Shown here: positions 9,985-39,624 of the stretch, in pieces
Layout of the letters: the number at the start of each line of letters is the position of its first letter
How positions within the stretch are numbered: position 1 is the first letter of the stretch
NCBI RefSeq assembly: GCF_003334315.1
Contig: NZ_QOWR01000003.1
Length of the DNA stretch: 64,000 nt
Direction: 5' to 3' (one strand)
DNA from: Escherichia coli
GTDB taxonomy: Bacteria > Pseudomonadota > Gammaproteobacteria > Enterobacterales > Enterobacteriaceae
Position numbers and translations under genes: made by a program
Notes under the pieces: generated by a model
What the model was told of the DNA's origin: nothing
Seen by the model: only the letters and a program-made list of their open reading frames with translations
Databases searched by the model: none

Positions 9985-10002
9985 TACAACGTGTAATCAC
10001 TA

Positions 10003-10026
10003 AGGCCGCGTAAGCGGCCTTTTTTA
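10003..10026 (+). terminator. Intrinsic terminator downstream of acrB
   Basis: aggccgc-gtaa-gcggcct stem-loop followed by ttttt. Confidence 0.7.
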
Positions 10027-10529
10027 TGCATAACCTACGAACATTAAGGAGTAATTGAACCACCAACTCAGGATCTCATACGAAAACCAGTATTAACCAC
10101 GGATAAAATTCATAAAAAATACTGATTGTTAGTTAATTTATATTAAGTAGCGCTAATAGATTTAATAATCCATAATCATTTAGAGGCTATTCTTAATTAT
10201 TTGCGGTAATTTTTTATTCATTCCTCGGTTATTACGTCATATTCAGAGCAATCCTGGTATTAGTGTCACCAATTTCATCTGGCGATAATCCTGAAATGTT
10301 ATGAATAGTTCGAGCAAACTGCTTTTACCTGCTGCGGGTTAGTGCTAGTATGAAAAAGTGAGTCCTGTCCCGCTTCCTTCCTAATTGTAATTTTTCGTAA
10401 TAATGCGATGAAAACCTGCAAAGAGTGGCTTATAGTTAAGCTAACAAACGAGAGGGCAAGTCCAGGTCAGTAAGTTTTTTCCATCCCGAAAGGTGTCCGT
10501 TAGTTCAACCGCTAAGAAGGGGACGCGTT

Positions 10530-10904
10530 ATGGATGAATACTCACCCAAAAGACATGATATCGCACAGCTTAAGTTTCTCTGTGAAACCCTGTATCATGA
10601 CTGCCTTGCAAACCTTGAAGAAAGCAATCATGGCTGGGTAAACGACCCAACCTCGGCGATCAACCTCCAGTTGAATGAACTGATTGAGCATATTGCGACC
10701 TTCGCACTTAATTACAAAATTAAGTATAATGAAGACAATAAGCTCATTGAGCAGATCGACGAATATCTGGATGACACCTTTATGTTGTTCAGTAGTTATG
10801 GTATTAATATGCAGGATCTTCAGAAATGGCGGAAGTCAGGTAATCGACTATTCCGTTGTTTTGTCAATGCGACGAAAGAGAATCCTGCGAGTTTATCTTG
10901 TTAG
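10530..10904 (+). CDS. tomB: Hha toxicity modulator TomB (YbaJ)
   Basis: ORF track 10530..10904, 124 aa, [32 protein letters not shown]; immediately upstream of hha. Confidence 0.9.
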
Positions 10905-10929
10905 AATTATTACAACCATGGGTAGAAGT

Positions 10930-11148
10930 ATGTCCGAAAAACCTTTAACGAAAACCGATTATTTAATGCGTTTACGTCGTTGCCAGACAATTGACACGCT
11001 GGAGCGTGTTATCGAGAAAAATAAATACGAATTATCAGATAATGAACTGGCGGTATTTTACTCAGCCGCAGATCACCGCCTCGCCGAATTGACCATGAAT
11101 AAACTGTACGACAAGATCCCTTCCTCAGTATGGAAATTTATTCGCTAA
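10930..11148 (+). CDS. hha: Haemolysin expression modulator Hha (H-NS co-regulator)
   Basis: ATG at 10930 inside ORF-track entry 10684..11148; [72 protein letters not shown], 72 aa. Confidence 0.9.
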
Positions 11149-39168: not shown

Positions 39169-39624
39169 TCTGTAAATATTATTTAGCTGTAGTAATCACT
39201 CGCCGTAATTATTACGGCTAAATAAACATCAGTATCGCTTATTAATATTTGTTCTTTTGTGCGGCTTAGCGTTTGGAAATTATTGGCGCCATTTATAAAT
39301 TCTATTTTTCTTACACGATTCAGCTAATGAGTCTTTATTTTCTCATCACCCAGTTGTCACTCTAATGATAATTATTTGTTAAATAATTGTTTTATTTCAC
39401 ATTGGTTATACCAATTGCCCGCCCAGACTCCTTCAGCACTCCCCTTTTGTTATAACGCCCTTTTGCAACAGCTTCTTAAAATCAACCTGATATGTTTTGC
39501 AACATATGTGACCTGGCAGCCAAATCCAAGTAACAGGAATTTAATCATGTTTACAGTAATGTAACCTTCCCGTAAAATGCCCACACACTTTAAACGCCAC
39601 CAGATCCCGTGGAATTGAGGTCGT

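Follow-up and report, generated by a model that had tools for sequence, protein, structure and literature searches.

Virulence genes and genes gained by horizontal transfer are silenced by Hha together with H-NS. TomB opposes Hha, and control of the tomB-hha operon is therefore relevant to the regulation of biofilms and virulence. The closest described system is the operon itself in Escherichia coli K-12 (tomB-hha, or ybaJ-hha), for which RegulonDB, EcoCyc and genomic-SELEX studies already hold a mapped promoter, a short leader, CpxR and PdhR as listed regulators, and an H-NS site. A second is the orthologous ymoB-ymoA operon of Yersinia pseudotuberculosis: EMSA and reporter assays demonstrated that CpxR~P binds the motif-bearing ymoBA promoter fragment and raises its activity, with the CpxR motif situated 56 bp upstream of TSS2, and the level of YmoA protein was unchanged by Cpx activation. 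More general points of comparison are Cpx-regulated promoters such as cpxP, which carry tandem pentamers with 5-bp spacing less than 100 bp upstream of the transcription start site (TSS), and AT-rich DNA bound by H-NS upstream of core genes.

We analyzed the DNA between acrB and tomB within a 64,000-nucleotide stretch of E. coli sequence, hereafter the window; w denotes a position in the window, and the corresponding NC_000913.3 coordinate is g = 491238 - w. The window is collinear with the K-12 MG1655 chromosome (26 SNPs in 8 kb), and the spacer itself differs from MG1655 by one SNP (w10212). The locus is the already catalogued tomB-hha promoter region: its promoter hexamers, TSS, CpxR and PdhR listing, and H-NS site all agree with the K-12 records. 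The acrB stop codon ends at w9984 and the tomB ATG lies at w10530, which leaves an intergenic spacer of 545 bp (9985–10529; 37.6% G+C). It serves an operon on the + strand (10530–11148) composed of tomB (10530–10904) and hha (10930–11148), and the MG1655 RefSeq record carries no annotation between acrB and tomB.

An earlier note on this DNA, made from its letters, had described a long AT-rich gap, a terminator after acrB and no convincing ORF, and all three observations hold. The spacer has a G+C fraction of 0.376, below those of acrB (0.54) and of the window (0.515), and only 0.46% of the 545-bp windows across the 64 kb are equally AT-rich. Six A/T runs of 5–6 nt lie within it, and none of the approximately 46 intergenic gaps annotated over 50 kb of MG1655 is longer, the runner-up measuring 459 bp. 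The acrB intrinsic terminator (10002–10029, + strand) consists of an 8-bp G+C-rich stem closed by a GTAA loop (10002–10021) and followed by a T run. No + strand ORF in the spacer exceeds 21 aa, and none is conserved.

The same organization recurs in related species. A TomB-based scan with one genome per species yielded 80 loci, 76 of which had acrB upstream. In 76 other Enterobacteriaceae species the spacer measured 435–559 bp (median 509) with a G+C fraction of 0.35–0.40; this conservation of length and AT-richness indicates that the feature is genuine and no accident of a single strain. We consider it highly probable that the spacer comprises the acrAB terminator, a long and mostly untranscribed regulatory region, and the sigma-70 promoter of tomB-hha; that is, control DNA ahead of an already mapped promoter with a short leader. 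The earlier note had offered three readings, namely nucleoid-protein binding, a long structured 5' leader and an unannotated small RNA. The first has in vitro support; the two RNA readings find no support, since the data show a single TSS near tomB, no independent transcript and no conserved structure, the very findings that the note had named as refuting them.

The tomB-hha promoter, its start site and the CpxR-type box

The promoter, P1 (10408–10436, + strand), is composed of a -35 hexamer ATGAAA (10408–10413), a 17-bp spacer and a -10 hexamer TATAGT (10431–10436); in a promoter scan these hexamers gave 9 of 12 matches at sigma-70 spacing. The -10 TATAGT was found in all 77 species aligned, and the -35 reads ATGAAA or GTGAAA in 73 of them. 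Identical hexamers are given for tomB-hha at an RpoD-holoenzyme genomic-SELEX peak (Shimada et al. 2014, PMC3946193), and a published sigma-S ChIP peak maps to w10347–10542.

The TSS is an A at 10443 on the + strand. The supplement of Kim 2012 (PMC3415461) lists a single tomB TSS (NC_000913.2 position 480019, minus strand; 53 reads) with a 5'UTR of 87 nt, and the upstream sequence printed for tomB, which ends ...GGCTTATAGTTAAGCTA, places this TSS at w10443, 7 nt past the -10. The next TSS upstream in the same list is that of acrA. In K. pneumoniae the same source records the same promoter with one TSS 97 nt upstream of ybaJ (151 reads). With 53 reads the E. coli set is shallow and may have missed starts that are weak or confined to certain conditions. 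The in vitro tomB/hha transcript of an RNase E study ran from -89, and the SMRT-Cappable-seq supplements contain no tomB entry.

With the mapped TSS 87 nt before tomB, the leader is 87 nt and not approximately 500 nt; transcription starts at w10443 and produces a leader of ordinary length. The 5' UTR (10443–10529, + strand) contains a CCAUCCC motif (10481–10487) and a Shine-Dalgarno sequence GGGGA (10519–10523), and predicted leaders of other species measure 81–101 nt. The long structured leader proposed in the earlier note found no counterpart in folding tests: the segment 10030–10560 (531 nt) folded no better than shuffled sequences (z = -0.43), the actual short leader gave z values of 0.02 to 1.05 across six species with no energy excess, and RNAalifold on 49 leaders returned only a 4-bp UCCC/GGGG pairing with 0 compensatory changes and hence no covariation. 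A long leader or riboswitch was therefore rejected on the 87-nt leader, the lack of an upstream TSS in E. coli or Klebsiella and the lack of conserved structure. Within the short leader, base pairing is possible between the conserved CCAUCCC and the Shine-Dalgarno region GGGGAUG; it appeared in single-sequence folds in the centroid structure of four of six species and in the minimum free energy structure of three of six. Since both sides are invariant, the pairing is unproven, and the folding models make it a suggestive candidate.

A CpxR-type box, GTAAT-TTTTC-GTAAT, occupies 10387–10401 on the + strand, corresponding to -56 to -42 relative to the TSS at w10443. It is the single match to GTAAW-N5-GTAAW in the 64-kb window. 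Its core, TGTAATTTTTC, is present in 77/77 species and the exact 15-mer in 64/77, and the distance from the box to the -10 is 44 bp in 76 of the 77 species (range 44–45 bp). The box belongs to an almost invariant block, 10382–10438, that holds TTGTAATTTTTCGTAAT, the -35 and the -10 TATAGT. Recognizable versions also occur in Cronobacter, Erwinia, Pantoea and Yersinia, so that promoter and CpxR box keep a fixed layout from Escherichia as far as Yersinia and Erwinia.

This arrangement corresponds to that of known Cpx-regulated promoters, with tandem pentamers at 5-bp spacing less than 100 bp upstream of the TSS. The canonical GTAAA-N5-GTAAA was read in the cpxR-cpxP spacer; compared with it, both tomB pentamers end in T instead of A, and 8 of 10 consensus positions match. 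The Yersinia locus carries the motif GTAAGATTAAGTAAT and a -10 TATATT in the same geometry as E. coli: the box starts 56 bp before the proximal TSS in both organisms, and 45 bp separate box and -10 in ymoB-ymoA, versus 44 bp in E. coli. The two loci differ in other respects, in that ymoB-ymoA has a 117-aa ORF as its upstream neighbor, a spacer of only 158 bp and two mapped TSSs, and no RcsB-type box was found there.

Published sources give a mixed picture of CpxR at tomB. This gene is a member of the CpxR iModulon, and RegulonDB lists CpxR as a regulator of both tomB and hha; in E. coli CpxR ChIP-exo, tomB is absent from the direct targets. Judging by the motif and where it stands, by the database entry and by the experiment on the orthologous Yersinia operon, CpxR most likely activates tomB-hha through the tandem repeat. 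The repeat stands just upstream of a weak -35, from where the Cpx regulator would activate P1.

Reported in vitro H-NS binding and conserved elements upstream of the promoter

Conservation along the spacer is patchy in the alignment of 77 species mapped onto the window. The acrB terminator stem and T run are at least 90% conserved across the 77 species. Downstream lies an Escherichia-specific segment of approximately 70 bp (10030–10100) with an alignment gap fraction of 0.86–0.95, which other genera lack. As a 79-nt query, this Escherichia-only segment occurred in one place per genome in 5,424 genomes; a mobile or repeated element was ruled out on this single-copy occurrence, and a repeat search of the spacer returned only short matches at chance level. 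The AT-rich core (10101–10240; 24.3% G+C) follows, with partly conserved blocks cTTATTGt, GTTTATTT and a tATAAT-like sequence, conservation being moderate over 10105–10175. Two short conserved islands, 10243–10256 and 10290–10312, separate the core from the almost invariant promoter block.

The nucleoid-protein idea survives because an H-NS genomic-SELEX site, overlapping the RNA polymerase-binding site, is reported in the spacer (PMC3946193). The spacer shares this in vitro H-NS site, the overlap with the polymerase site and its AT-richness with the H-NS-bound upstream regions of other core genes. The reported binding is most likely seated in the AT-rich core, whose G+C fraction of 0.243 is far below that of the spacer as a whole. 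Searched with TCGATAAATT, which we take to be the high-affinity H-NS motif, at up to 2 mismatches, the spacer gave one hit and no enrichment. In the mechanism that we favor, H-NS, possibly together with Hha itself, would coat the AT-rich part and damp the promoter.

A stronger version of this idea would make the spacer mainly a platform on which H-NS and Hha nucleate and spread, silencing or autoregulating tomB-hha, with the boxes secondary. We regard this as possible rather than probable. The 24%-G+C core with its A/T runs and the genomic-SELEX site argue for such a platform, and so does the finding of IS1 inserted in the spacer of several natural isolates. IS1 prefers AT-rich targets. However, conservation is only moderate in the most AT-rich part of the spacer, the invariant sequences being short boxes that contain G+C, and the tomB-hha locus is core and not horizontally acquired. 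The platform is also compatible with, rather than exclusive of, our main explanation of the spacer as terminator, regulatory region and sigma-70 promoter.

On that main explanation, envelope-stress regulators (CpxR, perhaps RcsB) and PdhR would modulate the tomB-hha promoter. The candidate site for RcsB is the first of the two islands, an RcsB/RcsAB-type box TCAGAGCAATCCTG at 10243–10256, approximately 194 bp upstream of the TSS. Its family consensus across the 77 species is TAAGAATATTCCTR, which we take to be the consensus of the RcsAB box. GA (10246–7) and TC (10252–3) are invariant in 77/77 species and the flanks vary; the E. coli copy matches the RcsAB box TaAGaatatTCctA at 9 of 14 positions and the family consensus does so at 13–14 of 14. 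The E. coli copy also fits the same pattern as the element 36–49 nt upstream of rprA, presumably the RcsB box of that gene. The two differ in placement: the rprA element lies 36–49 nt before the RNA start, compared with approximately 194 bp between the tomB candidate and P1, an unusually long distance. The string TAAGAATATTCCTR itself occurs in two publications that, by their titles, deal with RcsB or the Rcs phosphorelay.

The case for this box rests on its conservation, because the E. coli RcsB-like sequence taken alone is not above chance, with 3 matches in the 64 kb where 1.9 would be expected. The same RcsB pattern had no match in 3 kb upstream of wza, and across the 77 species no conserved -10 stands at a fixed distance (26–30 nt) downstream of the box. 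A literature search returned no relevant report on RcsB control of tomB. Treatment with a LolCDE inhibitor induced tomB approximately 6-fold alongside Rcs and Cpx markers, a response in which Rcs and Cpx are not told apart.

We tentatively propose that the spacer could be a conserved site at which two envelope-stress pathways converge, with an RcsAB-type operator, the CpxR box and possibly two promoters jointly setting the Hha level. If this were true, envelope stress would be coupled to the silencing of horizontally acquired and virulence genes by H-NS and Hha, because Hha is an H-NS co-repressor.

The second island carries the conserved element gCTAAC-n3-rATGAA-n4-TAAGG, seen in 69 of the 77 species at 197–257 nt (mostly 229–257) before the ATG. 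The pattern script did not match it in the E. coli window, and the E. coli copy was positioned at 10290–10312 by the alignment. Between the two islands lies a PdhR-like box, ATTAGTGTCACCAAT (10259–10273), which matches 11 of 12 specified positions, is restricted to Escherichia and is poorly conserved outside that genus. The pattern ATTGGT-N3-ACCAAT at up to 2 mismatches was found 2 times in the 64 kb, against 2.56 expected. tomB-hha is a reported PdhR target; the published PdhR SELEX peak is centered inside acrB (approximately w9692), with a weak 8/14 box at w9514–9530, and both are off the better-matching candidate.

A further reading concerns an upstream promoter, P2, that would give a leader of approximately 170 nt under some conditions, spanning the CpxR box and P1, and that the RcsAB-type box, approximately 108 bp upstream of the P2 start, would control. 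The candidate (10343–10351, + strand) is an extended -10-like sequence, TGcTAGTAT, read as TGCTAGTAT and placed 41 nt ahead of the CpxR box; its counterpart in Citrobacter is TGcTATAAT, and TATAAT-like hexamers occur in Klebsiella and Raoultella. The Yersinia operon offers a parallel: its two mapped TSSs lie at -188 and -106 from ymoB, TSS1 being 82 nt upstream of TSS2, and TSS1 falls 8 nt past TGATATAAT, a perfect extended -10 standing 39 nt ahead of the CpxR box. No such TSS is recorded in E. coli or K. pneumoniae, however, and conservation of the element does not extend to Enterobacter, Kosakonia, Kluyvera and other genera. Even a real P2 would yield a leader of approximately 170 nt and not approximately 500 nt, in which no conserved structure was found. 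On balance we judge a functional P2 to be unlikely.

The searchable literature yielded no description of the RcsAB-type box, the gCTAAC-type conserved element or the candidate P2, which are the only possibly new items at this locus. The conserved RcsAB-type box, as a sequence-based candidate, may be undescribed so far, the same may hold for a second promoter, and the gCTAAC-n3-rATGAA-n4-TAAGG element is possibly new. The value added by the comparative work is modest and consists of the fixed promoter and CpxR architecture together with pointers to the RcsAB-type box and P2.

Neighboring genes and the search for hidden ones

In Yersinia, Serratia, Erwinia and Pantoea, a conserved 117-aa ORF immediately precedes tomB, and the CpxR box starts with the final codons of this ORF, GAA TTG TAA. 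In Pectobacterium and Dickeya, genes for L31/L36 paralogues stand between acrB and a spacer of 500–600 bp.

The 117-aa ORF raises the question of whether an ancestral gene decayed to leave the E. coli spacer. A relic would fit the synteny and the common ...AATTGTAA end, and also the length of the E. coli stretch from terminator to CpxR box, which at approximately 357 nt is the size of a 117-aa gene. Against this, when four 117-aa proteins were compared with 81 spacers by tblastn, the best E was 0.22 and the hits fell at random positions and strands, and the conserved islands resemble protein-binding sites and not codons. We consider a relic very improbable, and it was rejected on the tblastn result.

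A small RNA or small protein gene concealed in the spacer is the least credible reading, and we give it almost no weight. The length without annotation would fit such a gene, and so would two 13-codon ORFs: one starts with TTG at w10056, behind an SD-like AAGGAG in the Escherichia-only segment, and the other starts with ATG at w10301. On the other side, P1 is the only TSS on the tomB strand, the part of the Cappable-seq TSS list that covers the opposite strand has none in the spacer, Rfam gave nothing credible in the window at E up to 10 and nothing at the gathering threshold in nine related loci, a terminator search of the spacer recovered only that of acrB, each short ORF either falls where the sequence is not conserved or has no ribosome-binding site, and the 21-aa ORF, the longest on the + strand, begins upstream of the TSS.

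The IS1 insertions seen in the spacer of several E. coli genomes include three mapped cases, all of which strike the promoter. One lies between the -35 and the -10 with a duplication of 10422–10430, another interrupts the 3' half of the CpxR box with a duplication of 10398–10405, and the third combines an insertion with a deletion of 10093–10472.

IS1 insertions at the tomB-hha promoter

The tomB-hha promoter was disrupted by IS1 in all three mapped natural E. coli isolates (tomB loci L082, L083 and L084), with the sites corresponding to window 10398-10430 and 10093-10472. One isolate carried the element between the -35 and -10 hexamers and another within the CpxR-type box upstream of tomB, while in the remaining one the insertion was accompanied by a deletion removing nearly the entire tomB-hha regulatory region. 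That all three cases hit the promoter suggests either that IS1 has a target hot spot here or that hha/tomB expression is under selection.

Conserved and variable segments of the acrB-tomB spacer and leader

An element of the form gCTAAC-n3-rATGAA-n4-TAAGG was discernible in 69 of the 77 species of the Enterobacteriaceae spacer alignment, mostly 229-257 nt upstream of the tomB ATG (range 197-257). A script search for this pattern found no match in the E. coli copy, and its position there, window 10290-10312, was taken from the alignment. The element corresponded to no known motif. Window 10030-10100 is an Escherichia-specific, single-copy segment that varies more within E. coli than the remaining spacer; in this segment a 13-codon TTG ORF begins 3 nt after an SD-like AAGGAG, an arrangement probably due to chance.

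Within the 87-nt tomB leader, the conserved CCAUCCC (window 10481-10487) could base-pair with the Shine-Dalgarno region GGGGAUG, its partner being the Shine-Dalgarno segment at window 10519-10523. This pairing, for which covariation gave no support, is a possible translational occlusion element. The E. coli leader has C in place of the SD-flanking U and GUGUCCG in place of the nearby GUGUUCGG, which shifts the predicted pairing partner.

Gene neighbourhood and possible separate transcription of hha

Yersinia, Serratia, Erwinia and Pantoea share a conserved 117-aa ORF, ending in ...A(D/N)EL*, directly upstream of tomB (L093 989-1342, L094 791-1144, L085 1004-1357 and L086 995-1348, in each locus's own coordinates), and its stop codon falls inside the CpxR-type box. 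A Pfam search of this ORF from the four genera returned no match; the tomB-hha cluster may include it as a third gene. In Pectobacterium and Dickeya, acrB is followed by genes for paralogues of ribosomal proteins L31 and L36 (L095 495-904; L096 582-992) and then by a 500-600-bp spacer upstream of tomB.

The Kim 2012 list (PMC3415461) assigns two additional TSSs to hha, giving 5' UTR lengths of 115 and 16 nt; they map to about window 10815, inside tomB, and about 10914, just after it, so hha may also be transcribed independently of tomB. Several predicted proteins of ~205 aa (P0005, P0008, P0010, P0026 and others) carry both YbaJ/TomB and Hha Pfam domains, which would require a change of reading frame over the 25 nt between tomB and hha; these are either real fusions or sequencing/gene-calling artefacts.

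A PdhR box in the cyoA-ampG spacer

Within the window, only the cyoA-ampG spacer, at 459 bp the second longest gap, matches the acrB-tomB spacer in AT-richness. The cyoABCDE operon is under PdhR control, and the perfect sequence match to the PdhR box in this spacer, ATTGGTTATACCAAT at window 39401-39415, is consistent with that regulation.
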